Below are positions 2,695 to 24,316 of a stretch of 28,400 nt of DNA, in pieces (within the stretch, counting starts at the first letter, position 1; every line of letters begins with the position of its first letter). Position numbers and translations under genes: made by a program. The DNA is from an uncultured Ruminococcus sp. (GTDB lineage: Bacteria > Bacillota > Clostridia > Oscillospirales > CAG-272): contig CACXCL010000257.1 in NCBI GenBank assembly GCA_902766115.1, positions 1 to 28,400 on the forward strand, in the 5' to 3' direction. The notes below the pieces were generated by a model. The model saw nothing but the letters and a program-made list of their open reading frames with translations, was not told where the DNA came from and searched no databases.

Positions 2695-2749
2695 AACACC
2701 GGCAATGCGTCAGGCTGACACCGGAAGAAACACTGTTTGACCGAACATG

Positions 2750-2781
2750 GCTCCCGGCAGATATTTCTGTCGGGAGCTTTT
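2750..2781 (+). terminator. Rho-independent terminator after clostripain
   Basis: GCTCCCGGCAGA-tatt-TCTGTCGGGAGC followed by TTTT. Confidence 0.8.
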
Positions 2782-2824
2782 GTCGGTCAGGGAATGTAGT
2801 TCTGCGCCAGAGCTTCTTTAACAC

Positions 2825-2858
2825 AAAAACCGGTCAGACAAGAGTCTGACCGGTTTTT
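2825..2858. terminator. Bidirectional Rho-independent terminator, ends the minus-strand adhesin operon
   Basis: Perfect inverted repeat AAAAACCGGTCAGAC-aaga-GTCTGACCGGTTTTT between convergent genes. Confidence 0.85.
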
Positions 2859-2909
2859 CGTTGTTACCGAACTGCAGTTATCAGGTCGGGCGGACCGTGC
2901 CGATAAAGA

Positions 2910-5900
2910 TCAGCCGTTCGTCGCCGTGATAACTTTGACTATGGAAGCGAACGCATTCAGCCACGCAGTGATGGGAGATCCTGAGGTGGTGAAGGTTACT
3001 TCCGCGGTGCCGGACTCGGCGAGAGTCACGGCGCCGCCTTCGGGGTTAACGATGGAGGTGATCTTCCAGCTCCACTTGTGCTCCTCAACGACCGTGTATG
3101 ATCCGGCCGGGAGGCCGACCACATTGACCTCGGTCTTGCCCGCCGGGAGGACTACCCGGAGGACTACCGCGTTGCTCGAATTGAGGATCGAGTACACGAA
3201 GTCCTGCTCGGCGGCACCCGTTCTCTTGATGGTGAGGCAGGTCTTCTCGGTGAACTTCGCCGTGTAGGTCACGTCGCCGGTGACGGTCCCGATTTCAGGA
3301 TCCCATCCCGCGAACACGTAGGAGCGTCCCGCCTCCGCCGCCTTGGTGGGAGTGGAACCGTAGGAAGGAGTATCACCGTATGCGTAATCCTGTACGAGGT
3401 CTTCCTGACCGTCCACCTTCCAGGTAACTTTGATTGCAGGACCTTCCGCTACCGTGATCTCCACTGCGGGAGACGCATTGTAGTTTTCGGTCTCCTTGTA
3501 ACGGACGTAATACGTTCCGGCAGGAAGGTTCTCGATCGTTTCGCCTGTCACGGCAACGTAGTTTGTGCCGTCAACGCTGTAATCCATCTCACCGTTTACG
3601 CCGGTGATCGAGCCGTTTTTCTGATTCAGGTAAGTCTCAGCAACAGCAGCGACTCCTTCGGGAGCGGCCTTTGCAGCCTTCGCGATGGTGTATTCCTGCG
3701 TAAGGTTGTCGCTAGGCAGTACGTAGTTGTCATTGCTGAGCCCGGTCACAGTAGCTGTATGCGGACCTGCGTTCGCAGCAGCACCGGATACGATGGCGGT
3801 ACAAGTATCGCCATCCACCAGGTTGCCAACAGCAACGGTCGGGCATTTTGCGGACTCGTCGTAGGTGAACGAGGTATCCGACCAGGTGAGGGTTACTTCT
3901 CTCTTGTTGATCGTAACCTTCTGACTGCCGGTGACGGTCTCGTAGTTTGCCTTTACGACCTTGAAGTACACGGTGTATTCTCCGGCGTTGACGTACGTCA
4001 GTGAGTCAACGTAAGACCCGCCCGCTGAAGCCGAATATGTCACGGTCGCGCCTTCGGGCGCGTTCACGGTGATACCGTGAGGCTGTCCGTCATACGTACC
4101 GACGTAGTCAGACGATGTGACTCCGCTCATCGAAGCGTTGACGATCGTAAACTGAACGGTCGTTTCCGCGGGGAGCTTGTAGTTCCCGTTGCTGAGGGCT
4201 TTCGCCTCGGCGGTGTAGGTGCCGACGTCAGTCTTTTGGCCTTCCACAGTGACGGTGCAAACGTCTCCGTTTACAAGTCCGGTCGCCGTCGCAACGGGCG
4301 CCTGAGCGTTCCCGTTGTAAGTCAGAGAGGTTTCAGACCACGTGAGGCCGACCGTCTTCTGCTCAACGGTAAGCGTTCCAGCATTGAACGTAATATCATA
4401 GTTGCCGCTGCTGAGTCCGGACGGGATGATCGAATACGTTCCGACATTGCCGAACTGCGCGTAGCCATATGTGTATTGCAGAGTACCGGTAAGAACAGCC
4501 TCAGTCTCTCCGTTTACAAATCCAGCGTAAGCCACTCCGTCGTTGGCTGGTTCATCACCGTAGGTTATTGTCTTATCCTTTGCGGTGACTGTGAGCCGGG
4601 CTTTGGTGATCACTACCGTTTCACTGCCGGTAACGGTGGTGTAGTTCTCCTTTTCGACCTTGTAGAACACGGTATACGTATCCACGTCTGTGTACGTCGG
4701 GTTGTCCGTGGAATACGTGCCGTTTTCGGCCGTCGAATACGTCACGGTGGCTCCTGCGGGAGCGGCCACGGTGATACCGTGAGGCAGTCCGTCATATGTA
4801 CCATTATAGCCGGAGGAAGTGATCTCCATGGTCGCGTCTGTGATGGTGAACTCAGCCCCGGTGAAGCTGACGTCGTAGTTTGCGCTTGCAGCCAGCGTGC
4901 CCTGCTTGATCGCGTACGTGCCGACATTCTCGCCGGATTCACGAGTCAGTGAGCCGGTAAGGGCGTCACTGCCTACGAGCCCCTCGACTGTGTAGGTCAA
5001 GGCGGGATCTTCCGTTCCGAACACCTTGGTCTTAGGATCTGCCTTGATCGTCAACGCCTTGGCGCTGATGGTCAGGTTTGCTCCGCTAAAGACGATGTTG
5101 TAGTTGTCACCGGCGGACAGCGTGCCCTGCTCAATCGCGTACGTTCCGACGTTTTCACCGGCAACACGGGTCAGCTCGCCGGTGATAGCGTCATTCCCAA
5201 CGAGGCCGGAGGACGTGTACGTCAGCTCGGGATCCGTCTCGCCGTAGGTCTTGGACTTAGCCTCAGCGGTGACTGTCAGCGTCGCCTTAGTAATCGTCAG
5301 CTTAGCGCCGGTGTAGGAAATCGTGTAGTTATCTCCGGCGGTCAGCGTGCCGATCGTAATGTCGTATTCGCCGACGTTCTCGCCTTCCGCACGGGTCAGT
5401 ACGCCTTCGAGGGAGTCACCCGTTACAAGCCCCTCGACTGTGTAGGTCAGCGCAGGATCCGTCGTTCCGAACACTTTCGTTTGCGCGTTCGCCGTGATCT
5501 TTAGGGTCTTAGCTGTGATCTTGAAGTCCGCACCGGTGAAAGCGATGTTGTAGTTGTCACCGGCGGACAGCGTGCCCTGATTGATCGCGTACGTGCCGAC
5601 GTTTTCACCGGCAACACGGGTCAGCTCGCCAGTCACAACGCTCTTGGTGTCGCCGTTGACAAGGCCGGACACCTGATAAGTGAGTGCGGGATCCGCCTCG
5701 CCGTAAGTCTTGGATTTAGCTTCGGCGATGACGGTAAGCGTCGCCTTGGTGATCGTCAGCTTTGCGCCGGTGAAGGAGACCGTGTAGTTATCACCGGCAG
5801 ACAGCGTGCCGACCGTAATGTCGTATTCACCAACGTTCTCACCGGCAACACGGGTCAGAGCGCCGGTAAGGGAGTCACCCGTCACAAGACCCTCGACTGT

Positions 5901-8900
5901 GTAGGTCAGCGCAGGATCCGCCTCTCCGTAAGTCTTGGACTTAGCCTCGGCGGTGACGGTCAGCGTCGCCTTGTTGATCGCAACGGTGGCGCTGCCGGTC
6001 TCGGTAGTGTGATTAGCCCACTCGACCTTGTAGTAAACGGTATACGTTCCGGCGTTCTTGTATGCCGGATTGGTTGCGGTGTAATCGCCGTTTTCGGTTG
6101 CCGAATACTTCACGGTCGCGCCTTCGGGAGCGGTCACCTTGATGCTGTGCTCTGCTCCGTCGTACGTTCCGCTGTATCCCTTGGCGCTTACATCCATCGT
6201 TGCCGCGGTGATATTTGCGGTAACGCTTGCGGGCTGTGCGGTGAGATTGTAGTTGCCGGCGTCATCTCCGGTAAGGCTGAAGTCGGTGAAGGTCACCGTC
6301 TTGCCTTCCCCGACGTTCGCGTCTTCGAAGGAGGCGGTTCCGGGCACTACAGTCACGTCGTCGTCGCCGATCTTTCCGTCGATAACGGCGGTGCCGGTAA
6401 CGGTCGCGGCGGTGGTGCCGTCGTAGACCTTATCCGCGGCGCGGAGTCCGGTGATGGTCACGTCCTTCGCCGTGATATTCGCCCTGGTCGTGGCAGAGGT
6501 AACGTCGCCGAGCGTGTAGTTACCGGATGCATCGGTGAGTGTGATTCCGCTGAATGTTACTTCCTTGCCCGTTCCGACGTTCTTGTCATTGAACTTGATC
6601 GAGTCTGCGGTTGCGGAAACGCTGTCGCCGCTGACAATGCCCTTGAGAATGACCGTTCCATCTGCGGTATCGCCGCCGTCGTACGTCTTGTCGTGAGCGG
6701 TAACCTCGACATTCAGCGTCTTCTGCGCAATAGTCACCTCGACGGAATCAACCGCGGAATCGCTGTGGTTGCCGTCGCCGACTACTTTGTAGTAGACGGT
6801 ATACTTCCCGGCATTGGTTCCGGTGGGTACGGTGTCTCTCCAATTCGTGCCGTCGAGGCTGTACTTCATCGTACCGCCGTCGGCAACGCCTTCTTCCACA
6901 AGCGCCCGATCGGAGCCGTTGTAGACGAGGTCACTCTTTGCAGTCGGAGCTTTAGTCACGGTCGCGGGAGCTCTTGTGATGGTGAAGGTGCCCTCATGGA
7001 AAATCGTGCTGTAGTTGTCGCTTACATAGAACGCTTCACTTTGTATGATCCTATATTCACCGACAGCATCCCCGGGTTCCCTGGTCAGCTTGCCGAAGAC
7101 AAACGGTCCGTCTCCCTCGACAAGTCCATCGTACGTATAGGTCAATTCGGGATCGTTTTCACCGTAAGCCTTCGTCTTGTTATCAGCGTGAACGTGGAGT
7201 TCTTTAGGCGCGATGATGACTTCAATGTTATCGAGCTGAATCTCCTCGTGATTGTTGTCACCGACGATCTTGCAGTAAATAACGTACTTGCTTCCAACAT
7301 CGCCAAATCCAACCTGAGCATTTCTGCCGACCGGGATATCAGTACTGTACCTCTCCCCGTCGGAGCTGTACATCATCGTACCGCCTGAAGCCTCGCCTGC
7401 GGTGATCAGTTCCTGATCCTGACCGTTGTAGATCAAACCGGTCTTTGCCTTAGCAGATTTAACTACCGTAGGATCAATTTTCTTAATGTTTACGTTCAGA
7501 GTCACCGGTCCGTAATCTTTGTGGTTATTATCACCGATTACTCTGTACTGCACCCCGTAAACTCCGGCGTCCGTTGCGGAAGGAACAGTCTCGCTCCAGT
7601 TCTCTCCGTCGAGACTGTACTGCATAGTACCGCCGACAGCCGATCCGGCCTTCACGAGCGGCTTTTCCGTGCCGTCATAGTTGCGGTCAAGCGCCTCGGG
7701 CGCGGTCACAGTAGGATCGGCCTTGCCGATAGAAACCGTAATGCTCGCTTCCGCCACACCGTTGTGGTTTGAGTCAGCGACTACTTTGTAGTAAACAACG
7801 TAATCACCCACTTCGGTCGCCTTGGGAATATCCGGACTGTAGGTCCCGTCTGCGCCCAGCTTGTACTGCATTTCGCCGCCGACAGCCGAACCGGCGGTTA
7901 TAAGAGCCTGTTTTTCGCCGGTGTAGGCAAGACCTTCTATAGCTTCGGGAGCAGTCCACTGGACGTCCACCGCGAAAATGCTTGCGGTAACACTGGCAGG
8001 CTGAGCGGTGAGTTCGTAGTTGCCGGCGTCATTTCCGGTGAGGCTGTAACCGTCGAAGTTAACCTTCTTATCCGCATCAACGTCCGCGGTTTCAAAGTTG
8101 GCGGAGCCATCGGCCACGGTCACGTCGTCGCCGTCGATCATATTGTCGATAACGGCATCTCCCGTAACCGTAGCTGCAAGGCCGCCGTCATAGTACTTAT
8201 CCGCGGCCTCGAGCCCGGTAATAGTCACGGGTCTCTTCGTGATTTTGCCCTCGCCGTCATAAACTTGATCAACGGTATAGTTCCCCGCGTCTGTGCCTGT
8301 GAGAACGACGTTACTGAACGCTACTTCTTTTCTATCCCCGACGTTCTTGTCCAGGAATGCCGCGGTGCAGGAACCGACTGACACTTCGTCGTTACCGATC
8401 TTGCCGTCTATCGTCGCGGAGGCAAGTCCGGCGGGAGTCGCGTCTTTGGTGCCGTCGTAAACTTTGTCTTCCACTCCGAGTCCCGAGACGTTCACGGATT
8501 TCGGAGTGATATTCGCGGTAACGTCTGCGGGCTGGATCAGCGTGTAGTTGCCCGCGTCCTCGCCCTCCAGAGCGTATCCGGAGAAGGATACCGTCTTACC
8601 GTCGCCGGCGTTCTTGTCCGCGAAGGATGCGGTTCCGGCTTTGATCGTGACAGTATCACCTTTGATGAGACCCTCTAATGAGCCTTCTCCGGTGACGGTC
8701 GCGTCGGTATTGCCGTCGTAGATCTTATTCGCGGCGCCGAGTCCGGAGATCCTCACCTCTTTTGCGGTGATCGTCAGCTTAGCGCCAGTGAAGGAGATCG
8801 TGTAGTTATCTCCGGCTGTCAGCGAGCCGACCTTAATGTCGTATTCGCCGACGTTTTCGCCTTCTGCCCGAGTCAGTTCACCGGTGATCGTGTCATTTCC

Positions 8901-11867
8901 GACAAGTCCGGATGACGAGTACGTCAGCTCGGGATCATTTTCTCCGTAAACCTTAGTCTTAGCGTCCGCAGTGATGGTCAATGCCTTGGGAGTGATTTTC
9001 CCTTTTCCGATGATGGTATCAGAGCCAAGCTGATAGTTTCCGGCCTTGGAGCCTGTAAGAGAGATACCTGAGAAAGTGACATCATTATCACCGACGTTAG
9101 CATTATCGAAAACAGCCTCGAATTCTGTTGTAATGCTGTCATTGTTTACTACTCCGTTAACCGTGAGTCCTGCGCCAGGAGCAGAGGTGTTTCCGTCGTA
9201 AACCTTTACGACCTCGTTCGCCACAAGGTCAACGACTTTCTTATCTACCGTCAGCGTTCCGGGAGCATACGTGATCTCGTAGTTGCCGCTGCTCAGTCCG
9301 GACGGGATGATCGAATACGTTCCGACGTTGCCGAATTGTGTGTAGCTATATGCGTATTGCAGAGTACCGGTAAGAACAGCCTCGGTCTCTCCGTTTACAA
9401 ATCCAGCGTAAGCCACTCCGTCGTTGGCCGGTGCATCCCCGTAAATGATAGTCTTATCCTTTGCGGTGATCGTGAGCGGGGCCTTGGTGATCTCTATCTC
9501 GGCGCTGCCGGTGAAGGTGGTGTAACCCGATTTCTCCACCTTGTAGTACACCGTATATGTGTCAGCATCCTTGTACGTTGGTTTGGTAGAACTGTACGGG
9601 CCATTCTCAGACGTAGAATATGTAACGGTGGCATCGGCAGGATCGGACACCACGGTAATGCTGTGAGATTGACCGTCGTACGTCCCAGAGAATCCACTTG
9701 CCGTAACTTCTATGGTATTTCCGGCTTCTCCGCCCCAGACACCGTTGACATAGGGGATCTCGGTACCGGCGGATTTGTCTGCTGTTTCGACGTACGAGCC
9801 GTCGCCGTTCTGGAGTTTTGCCGCGGTGATGGGGATAGAAACGTAGGTGGGATTAGAACCTGACACCGTGGCCTGATAGGTATTGGTGTCCGTACCGGGA
9901 GCCGCAGTCTGGATGACCTTACCGGTGCCGGCGGAGCTGACGATGGCGGCGCCGCTCTCGGTTGTATAGAGCTGACCGGCAACGGTCAGCGTGCCGTTGA
10001 CGTCAATTTTCGCGTCAACGAGATTGGTCGCCGTGCGCTTTGCCGTCGCGCCATTGACAGTGGAGTAGCCGACCACACAGAGTTGCGCCCCTGAAATAGC
10101 ATAAGCGCCCCACTGGTCTTTATCATAGACGTACGCCTTTTGACCTGACGCCACAGTGACGTTCGCGCCATCAGCAATCGTCATTTCAGCGCCGGGCAGG
10201 AACGCCACGTCCTGACTGATCGTAGTCGTGCCGGAGTTGACGTTGATCGTGATGTTGCTCTGGATGGGCAGAACGTAGTCCGCGGTATTCAAATCAAGAG
10301 TCCCGACCAAAGGCACACCTGTTATCCTTAACCGCATGGAATTGATTGAAAAATTTCCATCCACATTAAGTTCCAAACGGTCGCTCGCACCGGTGAACCT
10401 CTTGGTCACAGAACCGCTCGATATCTGAAACATGCCACCTGCGCCAACAAAAGTGGCACTGGCACCGAACTGCTGACTTGACGCGTTAACAGCAGCGAAT
10501 ACCTTCTCAGTAGCTCCGGAATATAGCTTCAACGGCGCTTCGATGTTCTGGACGTAATACTGATTCAGCGGGAAGACCTTCTCAGAATTACCCGCCATCG
10601 TGGAGATACACGTCCCGCCGCGCCAGCAGCGGACCTGAAAGCACTCCCAGACCTCAGCACCAGATCGGGCGTATACGTTACCGGAGCCCGCGACGTAACC
10701 CCATGCATAGAGTTTACCGCCGGACTGGACGTCGATGGAGCTACCGTCGTTCATCGTGATGCGGCCGTGCGGTCCGGTAGGCGTCGCGTTCCAGGATCCG
10801 CTGTTCGTGCCGACCGCAGAAAGCTGGGAACACACGCACAACGAGCCGCCGCTTGCAACAATTAGGTTTGCACCACTTGCCATGGTCAGCGTGCGGAAGG
10901 CGGAGGGGGTAACGTGCGCCGCCGGGGTACCATCGTCTTTGGTGGTCATGCCGGGCGTAGTGGTATAGACGGTCTGCGCCTCGTCAAACGGGATCAGGAG
11001 CGTTTTGTCGCTGGGGATCGTGTAGCTGCCGGCTGGAAGTGTACCATTGGAAATCAGGACTATTTTTGCAGTACCGCTCGACTGAGCGTAAGAAATCGCT
11101 TCGTTTAAATCGGTATAGAGCATGGAACCGACCTGCCAGACAGGTAAAGAGGTCTGAACAAACTCCGGTTGGACCGTGCAAGCCTCAGTGAAACTGGTTG
11201 TCAAGGAAGCTTTGGGTTCAAAATACACACCTGTCGTCATAATTTTCCAGCCAAAGAACTTGTAACCATTCGCGGCCGTGGCGGCGAGGGTAACGGAGTC
11301 CGTGGTCTTGAAGGTCTTGACCGTATCGGCCGTGATTGCCGTGCCGTCGACGGTATAGGAGCCGTTCGTCGGCGCCTTGAAGGTGATATCGACGTTCGCC
11401 TCCGCCGTCAACTTGAGGTTCGAGATTACCATTCCGGTCTCGCCTTCACCTTTGGGAGAGGTGATTGAGACAGCGACCGTTTCGCCAGTGTTCAACGTCT
11501 TGCTGAAAGACGTGCCGGCCGTAACGGACGTGCCGTCAACCGTTGCGCTACCACCGGAGAGCGTCAGAGTATAGTTAAAACTCAGCACCGCCGTAGAAAC
11601 GGAGTTATTTGTGAACGTCAATGTGCCGGTTTGTGCGGAGTAGCTAGTGCCGCCGCAGCCGCTCGAAGCGCTCGCTTTTACGCTTCCGGTGATCGTGCCA
11701 CCGCTCGGTGTCCACGTTGCTTTGCCGTTGCTTTCTGCCGTCAATCCGGTTACACCCGTATTAATAGCATCCGCCCAGGCAGGAATAGACAGAGACGGCA
11801 TAATGGCCGCAAGCATAAGTATAGTTATAAGAATAGACAAGCTGCGCTTAACCACGTTTTTAATCAT
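2910..11867 (-). CDS. Giant secreted adhesin-like protein (2985 aa): signal peptide, about 700-aa uncharacterised head, stalk of MBG and YDG repeats, one InlB B-repeat-like module, C-terminal Ig-like domain; no wall anchor
   Basis: Signal peptide ending PAWA; RBS GAGAGGA; repeated KTYGExDPxLTY...GENVG (MBG) and KVYDG...GNY (YDG) modules; WKVDG...PTK...FAGW...YTAKF module near the C-terminus; no LPXTG, TM helix or SLH at the end. Confidence 0.9.
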   Translation of the reverse strand: MIKNVVKRSLSILITILMLAAIMPSLSIPAWADAINTGVTGLTAESNGKATWTPSGGTITGSVKASASSGCGGTSYSAQTGTLTFTNNSVSTAVLSFNYTLTLSGGSATVDGTSVTAGTSFSKTLNTGETVAVSITSPKGEGETGMVISNLKLTAEANVDITFKAPTNGSYTVDGTAITADTVKTFKTTDSVTLAATAANGYKFFGWKIMTTGVYFEPKASLTTSFTEACTVQPEFVQTSLPVWQVGSMLYTDLNEAISYAQSSGTAKIVLISNGTLPAGSYTIPSDKTLLIPFDEAQTVYTTTPGMTTKDDGTPAAHVTPSAFRTLTMASGANLIVASGGSLCVCSQLSAVGTNSGSWNATPTGPHGRITMNDGSSIDVQSGGKLYAWGYVAGSGNVYARSGAEVWECFQVRCWRGGTCISTMAGNSEKVFPLNQYYVQNIEAPLKLYSGATEKVFAAVNASSQQFGASATFVGAGGMFQISSGSVTKRFTGASDRLELNVDGNFSINSMRLRITGVPLVGTLDLNTADYVLPIQSNITINVNSGTTTISQDVAFLPGAEMTIADGANVTVASGQKAYVYDKDQWGAYAISGAQLCVVGYSTVNGATAKRTATNLVDAKIDVNGTLTVAGQLYTTESGAAIVSSAGTGKVIQTAAPGTDTNTYQATVSGSNPTYVSIPITAAKLQNGDGSYVETADKSAGTEIPYVNGVWGGEAGNTIEVTASGFSGTYDGQSHSITVVSDPADATVTYSTSENGPYSSTKPTYKDADTYTVYYKVEKSGYTTFTGSAEIEITKAPLTITAKDKTIIYGDAPANDGVAYAGFVNGETEAVLTGTLQYAYSYTQFGNVGTYSIIPSGLSSGNYEITYAPGTLTVDKKVVDLVANEVVKVYDGNTSAPGAGLTVNGVVNNDSITTEFEAVFDNANVGDNDVTFSGISLTGSKAGNYQLGSDTIIGKGKITPKALTITADAKTKVYGENDPELTYSSSGLVGNDTITGELTRAEGENVGEYDIKVGSLTAGDNYTISFTGAKLTITAKEVRISGLGAANKIYDGNTDATVTGEGSLEGLIKGDTVTIKAGTASFADKNAGDGKTVSFSGYALEGEDAGNYTLIQPADVTANITPKSVNVSGLGVEDKVYDGTKDATPAGLASATIDGKIGNDEVSVGSCTAAFLDKNVGDRKEVAFSNVVLTGTDAGNYTVDQVYDGEGKITKRPVTITGLEAADKYYDGGLAATVTGDAVIDNMIDGDDVTVADGSANFETADVDADKKVNFDGYSLTGNDAGNYELTAQPASVTASIFAVDVQWTAPEAIEGLAYTGEKQALITAGSAVGGEMQYKLGADGTYSPDIPKATEVGDYVVYYKVVADSNHNGVAEASITVSIGKADPTVTAPEALDRNYDGTEKPLVKAGSAVGGTMQYSLDGENWSETVPSATDAGVYGVQYRVIGDNNHKDYGPVTLNVNIKKIDPTVVKSAKAKTGLIYNGQDQELITAGEASGGTMMYSSDGERYSTDIPVGRNAQVGFGDVGSKYVIYCKIVGDNNHEEIQLDNIEVIIAPKELHVHADNKTKAYGENDPELTYTYDGLVEGDGPFVFGKLTREPGDAVGEYRIIQSEAFYVSDNYSTIFHEGTFTITRAPATVTKAPTAKSDLVYNGSDRALVEEGVADGGTMKYSLDGTNWRDTVPTGTNAGKYTVYYKVVGDGNHSDSAVDSVEVTIAQKTLNVEVTAHDKTYDGGDTADGTVILKGIVSGDSVSATADSIKFNDKNVGTGKEVTFSGITLTDASGNYTLGDVTSATTRANITAKDVTITGLRAADKVYDGTTAATVTGTAVIDGKIGDDDVTVVPGTASFEDANVGEGKTVTFTDFSLTGDDAGNYNLTAQPASVTANITAATMDVSAKGYSGTYDGAEHSIKVTAPEGATVKYSATENGDYTATNPAYKNAGTYTVYYKVEWANHTTETGSATVAINKATLTVTAEAKSKTYGEADPALTYTVEGLVTGDSLTGALTRVAGENVGEYDITVGTLSAGDNYTVSFTGAKLTITKATLTVIAEAKSKTYGEADPALTYQVSGLVNGDTKSVVTGELTRVAGENVGTYAINQGTLSAGDNYNIAFTGADFKITAKTLKITANAQTKVFGTTDPALTYTVEGLVTGDSLEGVLTRAEGENVGEYDITIGTLTAGDNYTISYTGAKLTITKATLTVTAEAKSKTYGETDPELTYTSSGLVGNDAITGELTRVAGENVGTYAIEQGTLSAGDNYNIVFSGANLTISAKALTIKADPKTKVFGTEDPALTYTVEGLVGSDALTGSLTRESGENVGTYAIKQGTLAASANYDVSFTGAEFTITDATMEITSSGYNGTYDGLPHGITVAAPAGATVTYSTAENGTYSTDNPTYTDVDTYTVFYKVEKENYTTVTGSETVVITKARLTVTAKDKTITYGDEPANDGVAYAGFVNGETEAVLTGTLQYTYGYAQFGNVGTYSIIPSGLSSGNYDITFNAGTLTVEQKTVGLTWSETSLTYNGNAQAPVATATGLVNGDVCTVTVEGQKTDVGTYTAEAKALSNGNYKLPAETTVQFTIVNASMSGVTSSDYVGTYDGQPHGITVNAPEGATVTYSASAGGSYVDSLTYVNAGEYTVYFKVVKANYETVTGSQKVTINKREVTLTWSDTSFTYDESAKCPTVAVGNLVDGDTCTAIVSGAAANAGPHTATVTGLSNDNYVLPSDNLTQEYTIAKAAKAAPEGVAAVAETYLNQKNGSITGVNGEMDYSVDGTNYVAVTGETIENLPAGTYYVRYKETENYNASPAVEITVAEGPAIKVTWKVDGQEDLVQDYAYGDTPSYGSTPTKAAEAGRSYVFAGWDPEIGTVTGDVTYTAKFTEKTCLTIKRTGAAEQDFVYSILNSSNAVVLRVVLPAGKTEVNVVGLPAGSYTVVEEHKWSWKITSIVNPEGGAVTLAESGTAEVTFTTSGSPITAWLNAFASIVKVITATNG
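4399..4611 (-). repeat. Intragenic direct repeat, copy A (MBG domain)
   Basis: About 213 bp matching 9280-9492 with about 19 mismatches by manual count; offset 4881 bp (1627 codons). Confidence 0.9.
4830..5966 (-). repeat. Five tandem MBG-type domain repeats (about 225 bp, 75 aa each) inside the adhesin
   Basis: Units LTxTAxAKxKx[YF]GxxDPxLTY...LTRxxGENVGxY...GxNYxxx[FY]TGA. DNA at 5094-5180 is nearly identical to 5544-5630 (450-bp offset). Confidence 0.9.
6210..9240 (-). repeat. YDG-type repeats (about six) interspersed with MBG-type and other Ig-like repeats
   Basis: Recurrent [KN]K[VIYT]YDGxxxA...F.D.NVG..K.V.F....L.G.DAGNY.L modules in the translation. Confidence 0.8.
9280..9492 (-). 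repeat. Intragenic direct repeat, copy B (MBG domain)
   Basis: Matches 4399-4611; both encode ANDGVAYAGFVNGETEAVLTGTLQY...QFGNVGTYSIIPSGLSSGNY. Confidence 0.9.
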
Positions 11868-11888
11868 TTTTCGGTTCCTCTCTCTCTG

Positions 11889-12566
11889 TTATGCTTGCGC
11901 GCCGCGCTTTTTTTCGCGACGTCGTCTGATTTCAATGTAAAAGCATAGCCCCACGATGACGGAAATCGCCGCCCAGATGTGGGATCTATGTAAAATGCTG
12001 TTCGTCTCGGCGGTGCGGAAGCACTCCAGCACGGCGCGGACGACGCCGTAGGTGAACATATACAGGGGGTAAACTTCGCCGCGGGTCTTCCCTTTCCAGA
12101 CGCGCGGTACGATGATCGCAAGGAAGATCGCGTAAAATACCAGCTCCGCTTCCCGTGTGGGGAAACGCCACGGTGCGTGGCCGGGGATTATCACGCCCGT
12201 GCAGCACCCGGCGAAAATGCAGTTGACGCGGGCACAGGCGACAGCGAATATCATACAAGGGGTGAAAATATCGAAGACCTCCGTCGTTTTGCGCTTTGAA
12301 ATTTTAGCACCGAGCCACAAAGCAATCGGCATCAAGAAAACAACGCCGAACAAGCTCATTGCACCGCCAGTGAGAGGCTTTCCCTCCAGCACGGCGAACG
12401 CCTTGACAGAAAAGACACCATAAACGACTGATGCAACGCTCAGTATGAGCGCGGCGTACCACTTCATCCGGAGGCGGCGGCGCAGTAGAAACAGCCACAG
12501 AAACGTGACCGCGCCGGCAAGTCCCAGGAGAAGGTACAGCCGATTCGATTCGATAAAATTCGACAC
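11889..12566 (-). CDS. Divergent prolipoprotein diacylglyceryl transferase (Lgt)-family membrane protein
   Basis: Multi-pass; GGAMSLFG, DIFTP...ARVNCIFAGCCTG, FPTREAE and YGVVRAVLECFR map onto Lgt signature motifs with substitutions. GTG start with AAGGGA RBS. Confidence 0.75.
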   Translation of the reverse strand: MSNFIESNRLYLLLGLAGAVTFLWLFLLRRRLRMKWYAALILSVASVVYGVFSVKAFAVLEGKPLTGGAMSLFGVVFLMPIALWLGAKISKRKTTEVFDIFTPCMIFAVACARVNCIFAGCCTGVIIPGHAPWRFPTREAELVFYAIFLAIIVPRVWKGKTRGEVYPLYMFTYGVVRAVLECFRTAETNSILHRSHIWAAISVIVGLCFYIEIRRRREKKRGAQA

Positions 12567-12594
12567 AATATATTTCCCTTTTATAAGCCAAAAT

Positions 12595-12645
12595 ACAGCA
12601 CCGGCGGTCTCCGTCCTCTTTTCGGGGAGGAGACCGTCATGCTGT
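12595..12645 (-). terminator. Possible attenuating hairpin between the subunit genes and the Lgt-like/adhesin genes
   Basis: ACAGCA..GGCGGTCTCC / GGAGACCGTC..TGCTGT inverted repeat, followed on the minus strand by ATTTT. Confidence 0.45.
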
Positions 12646-12657
12646 TCGTTTGTGCGG

Positions 12658-13668
12658 TTACGGCGTCGTCCAGTTGGACGTCGCAGGATCGTACGTCGCC
12701 TCGGTCCATTTCTCCGCGGCGGCGTCGCCGGCTGCCTGGATCGCCTCGACCGTCACGGTGACGGTCACGCCTTCGGCTGCTTCGGCGGCGTTTGCATCGC
12801 TGAAGACGGGCTTTGTCGTGGTCCTGTTCGGGGCGACCGTGCCGTTATAGTAGAGGTAGTCGCCGACCTTCGTCCATCCCGCGGGGGTGGAAAGGGCGGT
12901 CACGCCTTCCTTGAGGAGCGGGCTGTCGCTCGCAACGATATTGCCCGCCTCGTCAACGTAATTCAGCACCACGGTCGCGCGGATCAGGGCGTCGATATTG
13001 CCGGTGTTGGTGACGGTGTAGTCGCCGTTGACGACAGCGCTCACCTCAACCGCCTTGAACGTTTCCGTGACGGCAGCGGAGCTTACTTTCTTCAATTCCG
13101 GATCAGTATCCGCGAAAACAGCGGACGGTGTGGAGTCACTGTTTCCGATCTCGATCAGGTGCGCGGTGACGGAAACAGAATAATCCGTCGTCAAAGGCTC
13201 CTCGGCAAGTTCGAGGGTGCCAAAGACAGGCGCCGTGACGTCAATCGTCAAAGGAGCATTCTGATAGCAGTACACCTTGACTCCGGCGGGACCGGCGACG
13301 CCGGTGAGTTCCTTCCAGTCTGCGCTCAGAGCAAGACCGGCGGGAAGATCGCCTGTGACTTCAATAAAGAGATACGCGGGGATCGCTTTTCTTCCCTCAA
13401 CCTTTACAACGGTGGTGGGGGCGACAGACGTGCCGGGGATAAGATTGAGCGTTTCCGCGCTCGTCTGGCCGGCGGCGTCCGTGTCGTATGCCAAAAGCTT
13501 ATCTGCAAGAGACGTGTCGACCATGTAGGACACGCTGCCGCTGAGGCTGACCTGGGTCGTGTACTTGGCGCTCGATCCGGAGACGGGGAACAGAATGCCA
13601 ACTACGAGGACCACAAGAAGCAGAGCGGCTGCAGCGACGCGGCTTTTCGATACTTTGATCTTTCTCAT
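12658..13668 (-). CDS. SipW-signal fibre subunit with two tandem TasA/BsaA-like domains (336 aa)
   Basis: Basic N-terminus, hydrophobic core, then SGSSA-KYTT; LIPGT motif; second domain VTNTGNIDALIRA...GWTKVGDYLYYNGTVAP...VTVEAIQA. Confidence 0.7.
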   Translation of the reverse strand: MRKIKVSKSRVAAAALLLVVLVVGILFPVSGSSAKYTTQVSLSGSVSYMVDTSLADKLLAYDTDAAGQTSAETLNLIPGTSVAPTTVVKVEGRKAIPAYLFIEVTGDLPAGLALSADWKELTGVAGPAGVKVYCYQNAPLTIDVTAPVFGTLELAEEPLTTDYSVSVTAHLIEIGNSDSTPSAVFADTDPELKKVSSAAVTETFKAVEVSAVVNGDYTVTNTGNIDALIRATVVLNYVDEAGNIVASDSPLLKEGVTALSTPAGWTKVGDYLYYNGTVAPNRTTTKPVFSDANAAEAAEGVTVTVTVEAIQAAGDAAAEKWTEATYDPATSNWTTP

Positions 13669-13681
13669 TTTTCCGCCCTCC

Positions 13682-14128
13682 TCAGTCTATCTGCGTGAAG
13701 GTCACGACGACGGTAAAGGGTACCGTGCCCGCGCCTGTCACTGATTCCGACATCTTGAGCGTGAGAGTTTTTGTTTCGTTTGCGCCTCCCGGGGCGAGTG
13801 TGCCGGTGGGCAGTGTGATCTCGCCGAATTTCGCGGCGTCGTCGGCCGAGGCGAACTTCACCTCCGCCTTATACCGCACGGCGGTCTCCCCGGGGTTCGT
13901 CACGGTGAGGGTGTACGTGCCTTCCTTTGAGGCGCCGATGGTGACGGGACCAGTCTGGGCCGACGTGGCAGACACTTTGAACGACGCGATACGTCCCGAG
14001 TCGTCTCCTCTCGATTTAGTGGTATAGCGCGCGTACATTCCCGTGGTGAAGTGCGCGGTCACCAGGACCATGCACAACAGAACGAGCGCCACGCTGAGCG
14101 TCGTGGGCATACTCTTCTTTCTCATCAT
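13682..14128 (-). CDS. Small SipW-signal fibre subunit (148 aa)
   Basis: Signal ending TTGMYA-RYTTK; YTLTVTNPGETAVRY motif; ends VTFTQID like the major subunit; RBS AGAGGAG. Confidence 0.75.
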   Translation of the reverse strand: MMRKKSMPTTLSVALVLLCMVLVTAHFTTGMYARYTTKSRGDDSGRIASFKVSATSAQTGPVTIGASKEGTYTLTVTNPGETAVRYKAEVKFASADDAAKFGEITLPTGTLAPGGANETKTLTLKMSESVTGAGTVPFTVVVTFTQID

Positions 14129-14196
14129 ATCTCACGTCTCCTCTTGTTTTTGCGTTATCCGGGATCGCGCGCCCGGCGGGTGATCGGCATTTGCCG

Positions 14197-14883
14197 TTAT
14201 TCTTCGTCTTCCGTTTTTTCTTCTTCCGGTGCGCCCGGTTTTTCTTCTGTTTCTGCGGCTTGTTCTTCCGGTTTTTCTTCGGTTTTTCCTTCTTCCAGCG
14301 CCTTCAGGCGGCGGATCTCGGCTTTGATCTCGTCAAGCTCGCTGTCGTCCTCTTTCCGCTCCCTTTTCCAGGATAGGTTGATCAGGAGGATCAGCCCCGC
14401 GATCACCAGGATGATGCCGATCGGCGATTGCAGAAAACGCACCGCGGCTCCCACGACGGGGATCTTGCCTACCATCCTGCCCTTTACGTCCTCCGCGGGG
14501 ATGGGCTCGTCTTCGGTATTGTTGGCGTCGCCCCGGGTGACGATCTTGCCGTCCTCCAGGATCCGCGTCACCCGATGGATGACACGGGACGCGCCGGACT
14601 GGTAGACCACCACGTCGCCCTCACGGACGTCCTCGCCGTTCACTGCCCTGACGAAGACAAGGTCGTTCACCGACAGGGTTGGCTCCATGCTGCCGGACAG
14701 CACCACGGAGGCGCCCCAGCCGAAGGGCATGGGCATGGCGTTGCGCACAAGGCGCCGGGCGTTGACGGAATAGGCGGTGCCGCCGATGAATACGGCGAGC
14801 ACTACGATGATCAGGATCCGGAAAAACAGGCGGCCGCCGTTTTTCTTCTTCTTTTCCTTATTATTATCCTTTTGCCGGCTCAT
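14197..14883 (-). CDS. sipW: Signal peptidase I, SipW/ER-type (S26B), copy 2
   Basis: VVLSGSMEP (Ser), VIHRV (His), TRGDANNTED; N- and C-terminal TM helices. Confidence 0.9.
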   Translation of the reverse strand: MSRQKDNNKEKKKKNGGRLFFRILIIVVLAVFIGGTAYSVNARRLVRNAMPMPFGWGASVVLSGSMEPTLSVNDLVFVRAVNGEDVREGDVVVYQSGASRVIHRVTRILEDGKIVTRGDANNTEDEPIPAEDVKGRMVGKIPVVGAAVRFLQSPIGIILVIAGLILLINLSWKRERKEDDSELDEIKAEIRRLKALEEGKTEEKPEEQAAETEEKPGAPEEEKTEDEE

Positions 14884-15838
14884 CTTTTTCTTTGTCGTCG
14901 CGCTTTATGGCGTAAATCAGCACGCCGATGGCGCAGAGGGAAACCACCGCGACGGCTCCCCAGAGATAGGTATTGGTGTTGTCGCCGGTCTGCGGGGGCT
15001 TCACGCCGCCGCCTTCCTCGCTCCACTCCGCAACGGCGCGGATGACGATGTGGAGGGTCAGGTCTTTGTCAACGGCAAGGTTGCCGAGCATGGTGTCGTA
15101 CGCGTCGTTGGAGTCGAGGCCTTCGCCGTCGAAACGCTCGAAGGGCCAGCGCCAGTCGAGGGTGTAGTCGCGGATGTTGCCGGCGGAGAGGTAGTCGGTC
15201 TCCTCGTAGCCGTCCAGATCAAGCACGTCGGGCCACTCGGTATCGGAGCCGATGACGTAGCCTTTTTCTGCGGTCTTGAGGCGGCCCTCGATGGGGATCC
15301 ACAGGCCGTCGGTGTTCTCGTAGTACGCATCAACCGTGAGCTTATACTTCAGGTTGTGGCTGCCGGTGTTCTTCAGGGTGAAGTTATACGCCTGCTCCGT
15401 GCCGGGGGCGAAGACGTTGTCGCCCTTTTCGGAGTTGACCGAGAAGACGGGATATCCCGCCTCGCTGTCGTAATGGACGCTGAATATGTCGATATCGGTC
15501 TCGGTGGTCCAGATCTGGTCCTTGTCCTCGACTCTGAAGCCGGTGACGTTGCCCTCAGGGTCGTCGATGATCGTGTCGGAGTCGGTCTTTGAGCCGGGAT
15601 CGGAAGCGGGAGCCTTGCCGTCGGTCTTTTCGTCGCCGGCGGCGTTCAGCATGAGCTTCGTCTTGTCCCCGCTCTCGGTAAGGGAGATATAGTTGCGCTG
15701 TTCCACGGGGGAGAAGGCAGCGATCTTGCTGACGACCACCGATACCGAGCACAGCTCAAGCAGTATCAGCAGGATCAGCGCGACGATGATCCCGGAATTG
15801 ATTCGCCTTCCCCTGCGGCGGGTCTTTGATTCTCTCAT
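14864..15838 (-). CDS. Sortase-anchored protein (PPQTG) carrying a domain homologous to the major SipW subunit
   Basis: Start set at ATG 15838 (GGAGG upstream). N-terminal hydrophobic helix; FSVNSEKGDNVFAPGT, NFTLKNTGS, WRWPFE...DAYDTMLGNLA; ends PPQTGD, TM helix, KR tail. Confidence 0.8.
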   Translation of the reverse strand: MRESKTRRRGRRINSGIIVALILLILLELCSVSVVVSKIAAFSPVEQRNYISLTESGDKTKLMLNAAGDEKTDGKAPASDPGSKTDSDTIIDDPEGNVTGFRVEDKDQIWTTETDIDIFSVHYDSEAGYPVFSVNSEKGDNVFAPGTEQAYNFTLKNTGSHNLKYKLTVDAYYENTDGLWIPIEGRLKTAEKGYVIGSDTEWPDVLDLDGYEETDYLSAGNIRDYTLDWRWPFERFDGEGLDSNDAYDTMLGNLAVDKDLTLHIVIRAVAEWSEEGGGVKPPQTGDNTNTYLWGAVAVVSLCAIGVLIYAIKRDDKEKDEPAKG

Positions 15839-15952
15839 TTGAGCTCCTCCAATCTGTATACACACGCGGCATACGCCGTGAATAATTCCTGCTTTTGCGC
15901 TTACGACCGCCTGCGCGCGTGCGCGGGCGCTTGTAGGAACAAAAGCCGCGGT

Positions 15953-15987
15953 TCCGTCCCCGCCCCGCCACGAAGGGCGGGGACGGA
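15953..15987 (-). terminator. 13-bp GC stem-loop after the major subunit gene (partial terminator or mRNA stabiliser)
   Basis: TCCGTCCCCGCCC-cgccacgaa-GGGCGGGGACGGA; the U-run on the minus strand is displaced about 9 nt from the stem. Confidence 0.7.
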
Positions 15988-16042
15988 CCGGTTTAGCTTA
16001 TGTTTCAGTTACGACTGTGATTTAAGTTAAATCAGGCTTAAA

Positions 16043-17011
16043 TTAGTCGATCTGGGTCGCGGTAGCGGTAAGGGTAGCCGCGATGGTGGTGTTGGCGTTG
16101 TCATCAGTGATAACACCAGCAGCAACGTTGCCGAGGTAGGTGTCAGCCGCATCGACGATGGGATCTGCCGCATTGTCCACTATCTTCTCAAACGCCCAAG
16201 CCCAAGAAAGTTCGAACGTGAAGTCCATCTCTTTGTTGGGATCAAAGTCGTAGGAGAGTTTGAACGTGCCAGTGGCAGGATCAGCATCGAGCTGGAAGTT
16301 ACGACCACCGGAAACAATATTTCCAAGAACGGTCTCAACGATCTGCGTGTAAGTATCATCGTCAGCAACCTTTTTAAGGATAGCGATCGCATCAAAGAAG
16401 GAGCAACCATCTTTAGAGAAGCCGTAGCTCTCAGCAGCCGCAAGAAGTGTGGGGTACTGTCCAAGAGCTCTATAAAGATCGGTCGCAACATCGTAGGAAG
16501 CGCTTCCCTTGGAAATCTTGAGGTTCCACTTAACAGGAGCATAGTCCTTGTCAAGATTGAATGTGCCGGTGTAACCGTAAGTACCGTCAGCAGCCTTTAC
16601 GAGCTGAGTGTAATCGGTGTAGGTGCCCTTCTTCAGAACGACATCTTTAACAGCCTTGCCCTCAAGGGTGTAACGAGTAGCAACCTCGGGGGTACCCTTA
16701 ACGGTAGCAACCATGCCGAGACCGTCATCTGCGTCAGGAGTACCGGGAGCTACAACGGCTTCGCCTTCAACAGACGAAACGACGGAGTACTCTCCATCAT
16801 CTTCTGTATAAGCTTCATCAGTTGCGAGATACTTGTCAGCAAAGTTCTTGCCTTCAACAGTCAGCACCACGCCCCACTTTGCAACGCGGGCCTGATCTTC
16901 GCCTTCAGCCTTGGTCACGTACTTTGCGAACGTGCCGGAGATGGCGCATACGGAGATGAGAGTAAGAGCAAGCAGAAGCGAGAATACTCTCATAACATTG
17001 TTCTTCTTCAT
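16043..17011 (-). CDS. Probable major fibre subunit with SipW-cognate signal peptide (TasA/camelysin-like, 322 aa)
   Basis: MKK, hydrophobic core, SGTFA-KYVTK (compare TasA GTWA-AF); VVAPGT; WAWAFE...DAADTYLGN; ends ATQID; strong RBS GAAAGGAG; lower G+C with T-ending codons. Confidence 0.8.
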   Translation of the reverse strand: MKKNNVMRVFSLLLALTLISVCAISGTFAKYVTKAEGEDQARVAKWGVVLTVEGKNFADKYLATDEAYTEDDGEYSVVSSVEGEAVVAPGTPDADDGLGMVATVKGTPEVATRYTLEGKAVKDVVLKKGTYTDYTQLVKAADGTYGYTGTFNLDKDYAPVKWNLKISKGSASYDVATDLYRALGQYPTLLAAAESYGFSKDGCSFFDAIAILKKVADDDTYTQIVETVLGNIVSGGRNFQLDADPATGTFKLSYDFDPNKEMDFTFELSWAWAFEKIVDNAADPIVDAADTYLGNVAAGVITDDNANTTIAATLTATATQID

Positions 17012-17241
17012 TTGAGAAAAACTCCTTTCATAATTTGCCTTTCGGCTTTAGATTCTTCCCTCCTCGGCCGGCGAGACGATAATGGGTCCTACGCTTCGTG
17101 GCGTGTTCCGTTCCGTCCGAACCACTTCCGGGGGAGAATTGATTTATATTCACCCCCGACGTGGCTTACGGGGGAAGAATACCTTAACTTGAGTGCGGCA
17201 CATGCCGCGGCCACTATGTTTGCGGGACCGCTCCCGCGGGG

Positions 17242-17961
17242 TCAGTTTTCGGGATCCTCGCCGTCTCCGGCGGTATCCACGGGGGTCTCGTCCTTTTCGG
17301 GAGCGGCCGGTTCCACCTCTTCCGACGGTTTTCCCTTTTCGGAGGCGGCTTGCTTTGCTTTGAGAGCCGCCAGCTCCTCAAGGAGCGCCTCGGTGTCCTT
17401 GTTTTTCGATTTCTCGTACTTCCTGCGGCGGATCAGCTCGAACGCCACCAGCAGCGCCAGCGGGATCGCGATGCACACGATGAGACCGGGGGTGGACTGC
17501 AGGAACATGGCGACGCTGCCCGCGCCCTTGATCTTTCCTTTATATATACCCACCAGGTTGTCGAACGGTGCGGGTGTGGGGTCTTCGGTGTTGTTGGCGT
17601 CACCTTTGGTCCGCCATGCCGGTTTCCCGTCATCAGTCTCGGTGATCTCCACCACCCGGTGGGTCAGCACTGAGGTCCCCGACCCGTCCGGATCGAAGAA
17701 CGCGATGACGTCGCCTTCCTTCACGTCCTCCGCCTTAAGAGCTTTGACGAAGATGAGGTCGCCGCTCTTGATGTCGGGGTACATGGAGTCCGTCAGGACG
17801 ATCAGCGGGGAGTAGCCTCCCACGGACGGGACCTTGCTCGGGTTCACCAGCCCCTTGATGATGATCGTCACGTTGACGACGAGTATAGGCACAAGGAGCA
17901 GGCACAGGACAATGCCGATGATCATCCCTGCCTTTCCCTGTTTCTTTTCCTTTTTTGTCAT
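17242..17961 (-). CDS. sipW: Signal peptidase I, SipW/ER-type (S26B), copy 1
   Basis: IVLTDSMYP (Ser), LTHRV (His), TKGDANNTED; two TM helices; first gene of the operon. Confidence 0.9.
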   Translation of the reverse strand: MTKKEKKQGKAGMIIGIVLCLLLVPILVVNVTIIIKGLVNPSKVPSVGGYSPLIVLTDSMYPDIKSGDLIFVKALKAEDVKEGDVIAFFDPDGSGTSVLTHRVVEITETDDGKPAWRTKGDANNTEDPTPAPFDNLVGIYKGKIKGAGSVAMFLQSTPGLIVCIAIPLALLVAFELIRRRKYEKSKNKDTEALLEELAALKAKQAASEKGKPSEEVEPAAPEKDETPVDTAGDGEDPEN

Positions 17962-18068
17962 AAATGAGCCAACCTTTCAAAAAGACTCCCCGGACAAGTC
18001 ACTTATCCGACCATCAGCCCGAGGTACTTTCTGCAAACAGAAACACTTCAAGACGGCATTCCAGTCTA

Positions 18069-18097
18069 ATTATACATTACGGTTTGCATCTTGTCAA
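18069..18097 (-). promoter_or_regulatory. Perfect-consensus SigA promoter of the SipW operon
   Basis: Minus strand TTGACA (18097-18092), 17 nt, TATAAT (18074-18069), about 100 nt upstream of sipW. Confidence 0.85.
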
Positions 18098-18379
18098 CAT
18101 TTTTCCGTAAAAAATTTCATTATTGCTTCATTAGCGGTTATAAAAATCGCATAAAAGCCCCGTATTGCACGATAAAGCCGGGATCTCCCGCGCCGTAAGG
18201 CTTCAGGCTGTTTTTCGTAATATGGATTTTCCCTGCCGGTTCGGGCAATTTCACCAAACGTCAACTGTTCCCATCCCGCAAAAGCGGCGTCGTATATCCG
18301 GCGCGTGAAAACAGCGAAAAAAGTCGGAAAATTCTTCCGTTTTCGTCAGCCGTTTCTACAAACGTCGACAGGGAGGCGG

Positions 18380-18388
18380 TGATATAAT
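18380..18388 (+). promoter_or_regulatory. Extended -10 promoter of the sortase-pilus operon
   Basis: TG-A-TATAAT, 26 nt before the GTG at 18415; no clear -35 element. Confidence 0.55.
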
Positions 18389-18414
18389 CGCAAAAACGGG
18401 ACAGAAACCGGACG

Positions 18415-18999: not shown

Positions 19000-19044
19000 T
19001 AAACAAAGCGATATATAAAGTGAAAGGTTCGGAGGGAGGCGCCC

Positions 19045-22665: not shown

Positions 22666-22740
22666 CCGCGGCAATAACTCGCGCCCGGTCGTGACCGAAT
22701 AATAAAACAACAAATCAAAACAAAGAAAGGAAGCAACACA

Positions 22741-24249: not shown

Positions 24250-24266
24250 ACCGTTTCGGACGCTTG

Positions 24267-24291
24267 CGGGGAGGGGGCTTCCCCTCCCCGG
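24267..24291 (+). terminator. GC stem-loop without U-tract after the backbone pilin (approximate coordinates)
   Basis: GGGAGGGG-gctt-CCCCTCCC inverted repeat directly after the TAA; no poly-T follows. Confidence 0.6.
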
Positions 24292-24316
24292 ATAAAGCAC
24301 AAAGGAGAGCGCGGCA

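Follow-up and report, generated by a model that had tools for sequence, protein, structure and literature searches.

Organisation of the cassette

The window studied here, a 28,400-nucleotide (nt) stretch of DNA from an uncultured Ruminococcus sp. (assembly GCA_902766115.1, contig CACXCL010000257.1, positions 1-28,400), comes from a genome assembly that is 86% complete. It carries on its minus strand a cassette of eight collinear genes, running from 18097 down to 2910, which we discuss below as the probable determinant of a surface fibre. From the promoter onwards, the genes encode a SipW-type peptidase (SipW1), a major subunit, an anchor subunit, a second peptidase (SipW2), a small and a two-module minor subunit, an Lgt-like membrane protein and a giant adhesin. 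A promoter of the sigma-70-type consensus, TTGACA-17-TATAAT, is predicted upstream of SipW1 (18069..18097, minus strand), and it is the sole 12/12 match within 2500-19200. The eight genes, the three maturation sites of the form G-x-x-A-[KR]-Y-x-T, the PPQTG sorting signal and the promoter all lie where an earlier note on this DNA had placed them.

The gene order SipW, major subunit, anchor, SipW, small subunit, middle subunit and large protein is repeated on contigs whose flanking genes differ, and the synteny is found in many Oscillospirales-like genomes. Conserved gene order had been named beforehand as a check, and the survey found it despite the differing neighbours; the genes are a real, conserved functional unit.

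Both peptidases are SipW-type, i.e., archaeal/endoplasmic reticulum-type, signal peptidases I. SipW1 (239 amino acids (aa); 17242..17961, minus strand) and SipW2 (228 aa; 14197..14883, minus strand), whose gene overlaps the anchor gene by 20 nt, score 90.3 and 92.3 bits, respectively, against TIGR02228 (cut-off 51.85 bits). Against the Bacillus SipW equivalog NF046067 they reach 80 and 74 bits, below the cut-off of 190. The two share 41% identity and are the only peptidases of that type found in the genome. SipW1 orthologues stand first in related cassettes, most of which keep the SipW pair.

3' of the major-subunit gene lies a candidate leaky terminator (15949..15990, minus strand), a GC-rich hairpin followed by CTTTTGT, with a minimum free energy of -40.3 kcal/mol and a z of -4.6; a simple terminator scan missed it because its T-run is short. 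The cassette was also found in bovine and sheep gut metatranscriptome assemblies. In two runs from one bovine gut sample, a single contig of ~1.17 kb comprises the major gene with a leader of ~165 nt (15994-17176), which is the longest and deepest metatranscriptome coverage of the cassette and includes the major gene only, while a third run covers this gene in two pieces and a sheep run yields short pieces only. The RNA-library contigs stop at 15994-16002, i.e., at the hairpin, and the other cassette genes appear in these assemblies as contigs of 150-250 nt only. The cassette is probably expressed. Inspection of the spacer between SipW1 and the major gene revealed no convincing promoter. As to the earlier claim that one promoter drives all the genes, the promoter itself is in place, whereas the hairpin and the major-only contigs argue against its sole control of every gene.

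An unannotated major-subunit family remotely related to TasA and BsaA

The major subunit (322 aa; 16043..17011, minus strand) contains a signal peptide, a beta-sandwich with a helical insert (~175-230) and a C-terminal TQID, and we infer its cleavage at GTFA-KYVT, as GTFA↓KYVT (the arrow marks the cut). Its family, counting 4287 clusters at 50% identity with members mostly in rumen and gut metagenome-assembled genomes, is without a Pfam or NCBIfam model and stands by itself, unannotated. In 150 cluster representatives with overall identities below 50%, the N-terminal motif and the terminal TQID hardly vary, which is beyond what chance would give. The best-conserved parts are the signal peptide, the first ~20 mature residues (K-Y-V-T-x-x-x-G-x-D-x-A-R-V-A-K-W-G-V) and the terminal T-Q-I-D. 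The AlphaFold2 (AF2) model of the subunit, with a predicted local distance difference test (pLDDT) score of 78, shows the beta-sandwich and its helical insert, with residues 15-45 unplaced. Indeed, the ~20 residues at the mature N-terminus, although best conserved, are unplaced by AF2 in the models of both the 322-aa protein and the 336-aa minor subunit. The family is patchily distributed, occurring in 17 of 301 sampled genomes of the same order. In one further arrangement, on a short contig (L048, G133:C6:1-5015), a single SipW gene is followed by four tandem major-subunit paralogues of 220-229 aa.

Profile-profile comparison by hhalign with an alignment of 24 Bacillota PF12389 (Peptidase_M73) proteins aligns the anchor family at 94.6% (E 6.8e-8), over its core without the signal peptide, and the major family at 90.7% (E 1.3e-6). 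In the hhalign register, T-F-A↓K-Y of the major subunit aligns with T-x-A↓x-F of TasA (T-W-A↓A-F). Five modules in four proteins, namely the major subunit, the anchor, the 148-aa protein and the N- and C-modules of the 336-aa protein, are related to each other or to TasA/BsaA. Among structure-based resources, the AFDB clusters returned weak "alternate signal-mediated exported protein" rows, and the Atlas one archaeal PF12389 cluster (TM-score 0.38). As judged from these comparisons, the cassette is a member of the TasA/BsaA superfamily by remote homology only.

A predicted sortase-anchored paralogue of the major subunit

The anchor subunit (14864..15838, minus strand) has 324 aa when read from M10, with a probable start at 15838, or 333 aa from 15865. 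It consists of an N-terminal transmembrane segment, a linker, a core homologous to the major subunit, PPQTGD, a transmembrane helix and a KRDDKEKD tail. The homology between the PPQTG protein and the major subunit, which the earlier note had asserted, is that of true paralogues (hhalign of the two families, 98.8%, E 4e-17), and the sorting signal is conserved, being retained in 119 of 120 anchor homologues, mostly as P-x-T-G-D followed by a hydrophobic segment and a basic tail. In related loci, the anchor gene always comes directly after the major gene. Against TIGR01167 the anchor scores 13.4 bits, below the cut-off of 15.9; the pentapeptide, hydrophobic segment and basic tail, together with the sortases in the genome, are nevertheless those expected of a sortase substrate, and cleavage is predicted.

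Seven sortase-domain loci are present in the genome, in which two classes of sorting signal are found, LPxTGG in two classical pilus loci and (A/P)PxTGD in ~9 other surface proteins and the anchor (examples lie on contigs C43, C98, C141, C189 and C268 of this genome, G000). The two classes suggest two sortase specificities. Because the PxTGD signal of the anchor is of the housekeeping class and not the LPxTGG of the neighbouring pilus locus, a housekeeping sortase would be its likelier partner. The sortases of that adjoining locus were considered as well and, from the classes of sorting signal, judged unlikely to serve the anchor.

The anchor family also keeps a conserved I-S-L-T-E (Y-I-S-L-T-E) after the transmembrane helix, which, compared by eye, resembles the K-Y-V-T-K-A-E of the major subunit. 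A donor strand may thus be present in the anchor as well, and the earlier proposal of a base without one is doubtful.

The minor subunits

The small paralogue (148 aa; 13682..14128, minus strand) carries the site GMYA↓RYTT, a single Ig-like domain and a C-terminal TQID. It has its N-terminal segment and TQID end in common with the major family, by which, together with weak BLAST matches, it is placed in the superfamily; its orthologues, of 161-231 aa, follow SipW2 in related loci.

The two-module minor subunit (336 aa; 12658..13668, minus strand) carries the site GSSA↓KYTT and consists of an N-module and a BsaA-like C-module connected by a linking strand (~194-206). It is a natural fusion, the halves of which are separate genes in locus L009 and other loci. 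Orthologues of the C-module score 16-33 bits (E 6e-3 to 5e-8) against the BsaA family TIGR04090, below its 60-bit cut-off, and the protein of this cassette itself gives E 4.4; the N-module is provisionally placed in the superfamily by its AKY site and synteny only. In the AF2 model of the 336-aa protein (pLDDT 82), the linking strand is placed with pLDDT >90, and the N-terminal donor-like segment is unplaced. Domain 1 of this model spans residues 51-207 and takes in the inter-module strand; where the modules are split, this strand begins the mature C-module protein. The best structural matches of domain 1, with middling scores, include the donor-strand-complemented chaperone-usher pilins AggA (Z 8.1) and SafD (7.3) and the self-complemented MyfA (6.6).

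The giant adhesin and its C-terminal module

The last gene (2910..11867, minus strand) encodes a giant adhesin of 2985 aa with an ordinary signal peptide, a ~700-aa head, an MBG_2/YDG stalk (ten MBG_2 and six YDG domains by Pfam) and a C-terminal docking module; it has no LPXTG motif and no C-terminal transmembrane helix. The head (9770-11780, minus strand; residues ~30-700) has no Pfam match, displays beta-helix-like repeats by eye, and is 46% and 37% identical to the giant proteins of L009 and L011, respectively. The C-terminal module (2913..3362, minus strand) is a DUF5979/SpaA-like beta-sandwich of ~110 aa (…LPxGxYTVxE…WSW…), for which the Atlas lead is DUF5979/DUF7601, extended by a W-L-N… tail. 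This tail, W-L-N/S-G-x-S…N-x-F, occupies the position that LPXTG takes in other surface proteins.

The module is found in 9 of 10 large cassette proteins, the passenger regions of which vary between cassettes. Its profile has matches in 28 of the 301 genomes of the order, 11 of them also positive for the major family versus 1.6 expected, a figure that is indicative only, as related genomes are not independent. Seventeen loci have the module without the major family, and the 14 of these that were examined (L088-L101) are all canonical TasA/Peptidase_M73-like cassettes, with a SipW gene in 12 (the other two lie on short or cut contigs). They contain 2-7 Peptidase_M73-like subunits and then a 700-1900-aa protein with the module, and in most of them, where the sequence reaches, a BsaA-like gene directly follows the large-protein gene and often overlaps it. 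The L095 cassette includes a TasA-like protein ending in PPETGD. Since the module is common to 9 of 10 large cassette proteins and to all 14 further cassettes, the giant protein belongs to the system, as had been proposed, and the module characterises adhesins that go with SipW/TasA-type systems in general. With a BsaA-like gene directly following the large-protein gene, the BsaA-like protein is therefore the likeliest candidate partner of the module.

The Lgt-like membrane protein (225 aa; 11889..12566, minus strand) matches PF01790 with 58 bits (E 1e-15) at profile positions 74-239 only and misses the Lgt equivalog cut-offs (TIGR00544, 28 versus 118.9 bits; NF000778, 36 versus 334). A housekeeping Lgt (229 bits) is encoded on another contig, and the cassette protein is a divergent paralogue of it. 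The Lgt-like gene was seen only beside adhesins with the beta-helix-like head (this cassette, L009 and L011) and is absent from more distant cassettes, and so, judged by its occurrence, it behaves as an optional add-on. The signal peptide region of the major subunit contains a lipobox-like motif, [LIM]-[ST]-[TS]-C, at residues 19-22 (16946-16957, minus strand), which stands exactly 7 residues before the inferred SipW site in 93 of 148 motif-carrying cluster representatives; all 118 close homologues that carry this stretch have a Cys within it. Action of the Lgt paralogue on this Cys was considered, and co-occurrence lends it no support, the Cys being present in nearly all major subunits with or without an Lgt-like neighbour.

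A model of the fibre and its alternatives

We consider it probable that the operon encodes a SipW-matured, sortase-anchored and adhesin-bearing surface fibre of the TasA/BsaA superfamily. In this model, cleavage of the subunits by SipW would fall behind the Ala of G-x-x-A↓K/R-Y. The N-terminal segment so released would fill in the beta-sandwich of an adjacent subunit, and copies of the 322-aa protein would in this way build a shaft held together non-covalently. Indirect signs of such an exchange are the strong conservation of this segment, which AF2 leaves unplaced in both models, and the inclusion of the linking strand in domain 1 of the 336-aa fusion. The role of adaptors would fall to the 148-aa and 336-aa proteins, with the BsaA-like module probably holding the adhesin through the C-terminal module and tail of the latter. 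The anchor paralogue would be linked to peptidoglycan by a housekeeping sortase with (A/P)PxTGD substrates, so that the fibre is fixed to the wall, and the hairpin after the major gene may keep the major subunit in excess.

Several results weigh against this model. No fibre has been seen. No cassette protein reaches the threshold of a TasA, camelysin, SipW-cognate or BsaA hidden Markov model (HMM). None of the four subunits matches PF12389 at E up to 10, and PF12389 has no match anywhere in the genome, in a search whose control recovers B. subtilis; TIGR04088 (34 positions, cut-off 19 bits) has no match in the cassette, and its best score in the genome, 12.5 bits, lies on another contig. The HMM searches with TIGR04088 and camelysin/PF12389 that the earlier note had called for are thus negative for the cassette proteins. 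The hhalign alignment of the major family with Peptidase_M73 leans partly on the signal peptide. A comparison of two family profiles with the PDB sequences returned nothing relevant, Foldseek of the major-subunit model against the PDB returned no match at E up to 0.001, and VIA placed generic adhesin, pilin and viral sandwiches (Z up to 6.9) at the top, with TasA outside the top 50. The description of the subunits as TasA-like thus holds as remote homology between profiles, but direct HMM membership does not follow, and the fold searches do not single out TasA. The reading of the inter-module strand of the 336-aa protein as inserted in cis comes from a single AF2 model, for which 19 sequences were used, and from domain ranges, not inspected contacts. 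Finally, contigs from RNA libraries prove neither transcription nor transcript ends nor expression levels, and an excess of the major subunit is therefore a presumption with which the contigs are consistent. A complex prediction for three mature major subunits, run without controls, gave a median score of 0.00, with one run of three at 0.66, and weighs on neither side.

The polarity of such a fibre can be drawn in two ways. The earlier note had made the adhesin a donor only and the base an acceptor only, an arrangement that is compatible with the data but not singled out by them, the reverse being compatible as well. In the reverse arrangement, which we regard as somewhat unlikely, each N-terminal strand would enter the more distal neighbour, as in chaperone-usher pili and TapA-TasA; the C-terminal module of the adhesin would be an acceptor only, at the tip, and the anchor, cleaved perhaps by SipW2, would donate its …N-Y-I-S-L-T-E… segment into the last shaft subunit. 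The ordinary signal peptide of the adhesin fits this arrangement, since the protein has no AKY-type N-terminus and its conserved part is the C-terminal domain, although the adhesin tail could itself be a donor strand. The likeness, by eye, of the anchor I-S-L-T-E to K-Y-V-T-K-A-E points the same way, but a G-x-x-A↓K-Y site is missing from the anchor, and the N-termini of anchor and major subunit stay unaligned in hhalign. The retention of the two SipW paralogues as a pair, with the second coupled to the anchor gene, and the precedent of TapA as the donor-only partner of TasA (PMC10151520) also speak for it; a fibre growing in this way would, however, be untethered to the membrane during growth.

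It is also conceivable, though unlikely, that there is no fibre at all and that these are secreted or wall-bound matrix or coat proteins, present singly or as small oligomers, with the anchor as a wall-linked family member and the adhesin binding wall or matrix through its C-module. Polymerisation has no direct evidence, the fold matches are generic adhesin-type beta-sandwiches, and BsaB of C. perfringens forms only dimers and does not polymerise (PMC11580942). Against this stand the extreme conservation of an N-terminal segment that monomer models leave unplaced, the fixed gene order with one abundant and several minor subunits, as in known pilus loci, and the natural 336-aa fusion, which points to an inter-subunit contact. 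If the subunits do polymerise, the shaft might be covalently locked by an intermolecular isopeptide bond formed after strand insertion, as proposed for BsaA, from a conserved Lys (K30 or K45), Asp (D39 or the terminal …Q-I-D) and Glu (P-E-V-A). Divergent family members keep these residues with little or no change and BsaA is a precedent (PMC11580942), but no structure or model brings the residues together, and we hold such a lock to be quite improbable. Least probable of all is that the fibre cassette merely adjoins a separate unit of two genes, the Lgt-like gene and that of the giant protein: the Lgt-like gene and the ~700-aa head do occur together only in the closest relatives, and distant cassettes do not have the gene, but the module and tail of the giant protein are common to otherwise unrelated large proteins in 9 of 10 cassettes and the module recurs in all 14 further SipW/TasA-like ones.

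Returning to the SipW-matured, sortase-anchored fibre, a bolder version of it, which we offer tentatively and as rather less than even in likelihood, would see in the cassette a widespread third route to Gram-positive pili. Here a polarised hetero-oligomer of the TasA superfamily would stand as a non-covalent shaft on a sortase-fixed paralogue, exchangeable giant adhesins would dock by their C-module and tail on a translationally coupled BsaA-like adaptor, and the two SipW peptidases would serve different substrate classes. Within this scheme, the lipobox-like Cys and the Lgt paralogue might hint at a lipid-tethered assembly intermediate.

Comparison with known fibre systems

Genes of the BsaA/TasA family often lie beside LPxTG proteins, sortases, signal peptidases and several paralogues, and an LPXTG homologue of BsaB has been speculated to anchor BsaA fibres through sortase (Kivimaki et al., PMC11580942). 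A preprint on AbpX describes bacterial TasA-superfamily loci that encode tip and minor components and anchors of the LPXTG or SLH kind; its AlphaFold3 (AF3) models join the anchors to the fibril by donor-strand complementation (bioRxiv 10.64898/2026.01.04.697558). Sleutel et al. have demonstrated a donor-strand-exchange shaft with a sortase-anchored base and a modular tip adhesin, made of unrelated WxL proteins (bioRxiv 10.64898/2026.10.17.759780). Since LPXTG-anchored fibres of the TasA superfamily and a hybrid WxL pilus are thus already on record, the concept is not new, and the novelty that had been suggested for a non-covalent shaft on a covalent anchor was overstated: preprints of 2024-2026 propose or, for WxL, demonstrate such an architecture. 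What is new here is the distinct major-subunit family, the paired SipW peptidases, the docking module of the adhesin with its coupled adaptor gene, and the Lgt-like gene.

The closest counterpart is sipW-bsaA-bsaB-bsaC of C. perfringens, in which a SipW-type peptidase likewise heads an operon of TasA-superfamily paralogues (Obana 2020, PMC7395162; PMC11580942), one BsaB-like paralogue has an LPXTG motif in most strains, and a large protein, BsaC, is encoded at the 3' end; within the cassette, the BsaA family is approached most closely by the C-module of the 336-aa protein. The major subunit here, however, is a separate family (…GTFA↓KYVT…TQID, with a helical insert) matching neither TIGR04090 nor PF12389, and the cassette has two SipW peptidases, an Lgt-like gene and a 2985-aa MBG/YDG adhesin with the C-module, where C. 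perfringens has a vWA protein.

The tapA-sipW-tasA locus of B. subtilis and the sipW-tasA-calY locus of B. cereus resemble the cassette in their dedicated SipW and in the cleavage register T-x-A↓x-[FY] (PMC9674648, PMC10151520, PMC13082335), in a beta-sandwich subunit, with the mature N-terminus of TasA serving as donor strand, and in an accessory protein at one fibre end. The homology is remote only (hhalign 91-95%, no HMM match), and the Bacillus loci are without a sortase signal, giant adhesin or second SipW, TasA matrix fibres not being covalently anchored to the wall. AbpX-type loci likewise combine fibril subunits and minor and tip components with a signal peptidase of their own and with anchor proteins of the LPXTG or SLH kind, but the AbpX peptidase has ten transmembrane helices, unlike the SipW-like pair here, and neither the C-terminal adhesin module nor the Lgt-like gene is described in the AbpX preprint.

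The WxL pilus of E. faecalis, encoded by elrABCDE, is alike in architecture, not in family. As in the model above, its shaft is non-covalent and formed by donor-strand exchange, its distal adhesin joins a variable payload to an invariant attachment module, and sortase A anchors a terminator with LPxTG; WxLIP is among the fold matches of the 336-aa model (Z 6.8). The protein families are nonetheless unrelated: no WxL domain and no DUF916/DUF3324 chaperone is among the Pfam matches of the operon, in which maturation is of the SipW type and no chaperone was identified. SpaA-type sortase pili, including the adjoining locus at 18415-26756, are likewise Gram-positive fibres with a tip adhesin and a wall-linked base, and the C-module of the adhesin resembles the DUF5979/SpaA-like domains that usually precede LPXTG. 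However, the shaft subunit of the cassette has neither a sorting signal nor a pilin motif and is therefore not polymerisable by sortase, unlike that of SpaA-type pili, and the anchor has PxTGD in place of the LPxTGG of the neighbouring pilins.

The cassette offers a concrete, testable case of a TasA-superfamily fibre bound covalently to the wall and bearing giant adhesins, an architecture so far only proposed from gene neighbourhoods and AF3 models, and it does not overturn current concepts. The adhesin docking module, the adhesin-coupled BsaA-like gene and the paired SipW peptidases provide handles for annotation and experiment. As the major-subunit family is very large, unannotated and present in gut metatranscriptome assemblies, the fibre may be a common, unrecognised adhesion organelle of uncultured Oscillospirales.

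Neighbouring genes

The classical sortase-pilus locus lies on the plus strand and diverges from the SipW operon. It encodes an S26 signal peptidase I (18415-18999), a 1206-aa LPATGG protein with DUF7601, a 502-aa backbone pilin (LPETGG), a 611-aa open reading frame that fuses a sortase domain to Cna_B/pilin domains, and a second sortase. The outer parts of the window contain, both on the plus strand, a gene for a 797-aa clostripain-family (Peptidase_C11) protein (301-2694) and one for a TraB/PrgY/GumN-family protein (26915-27973).

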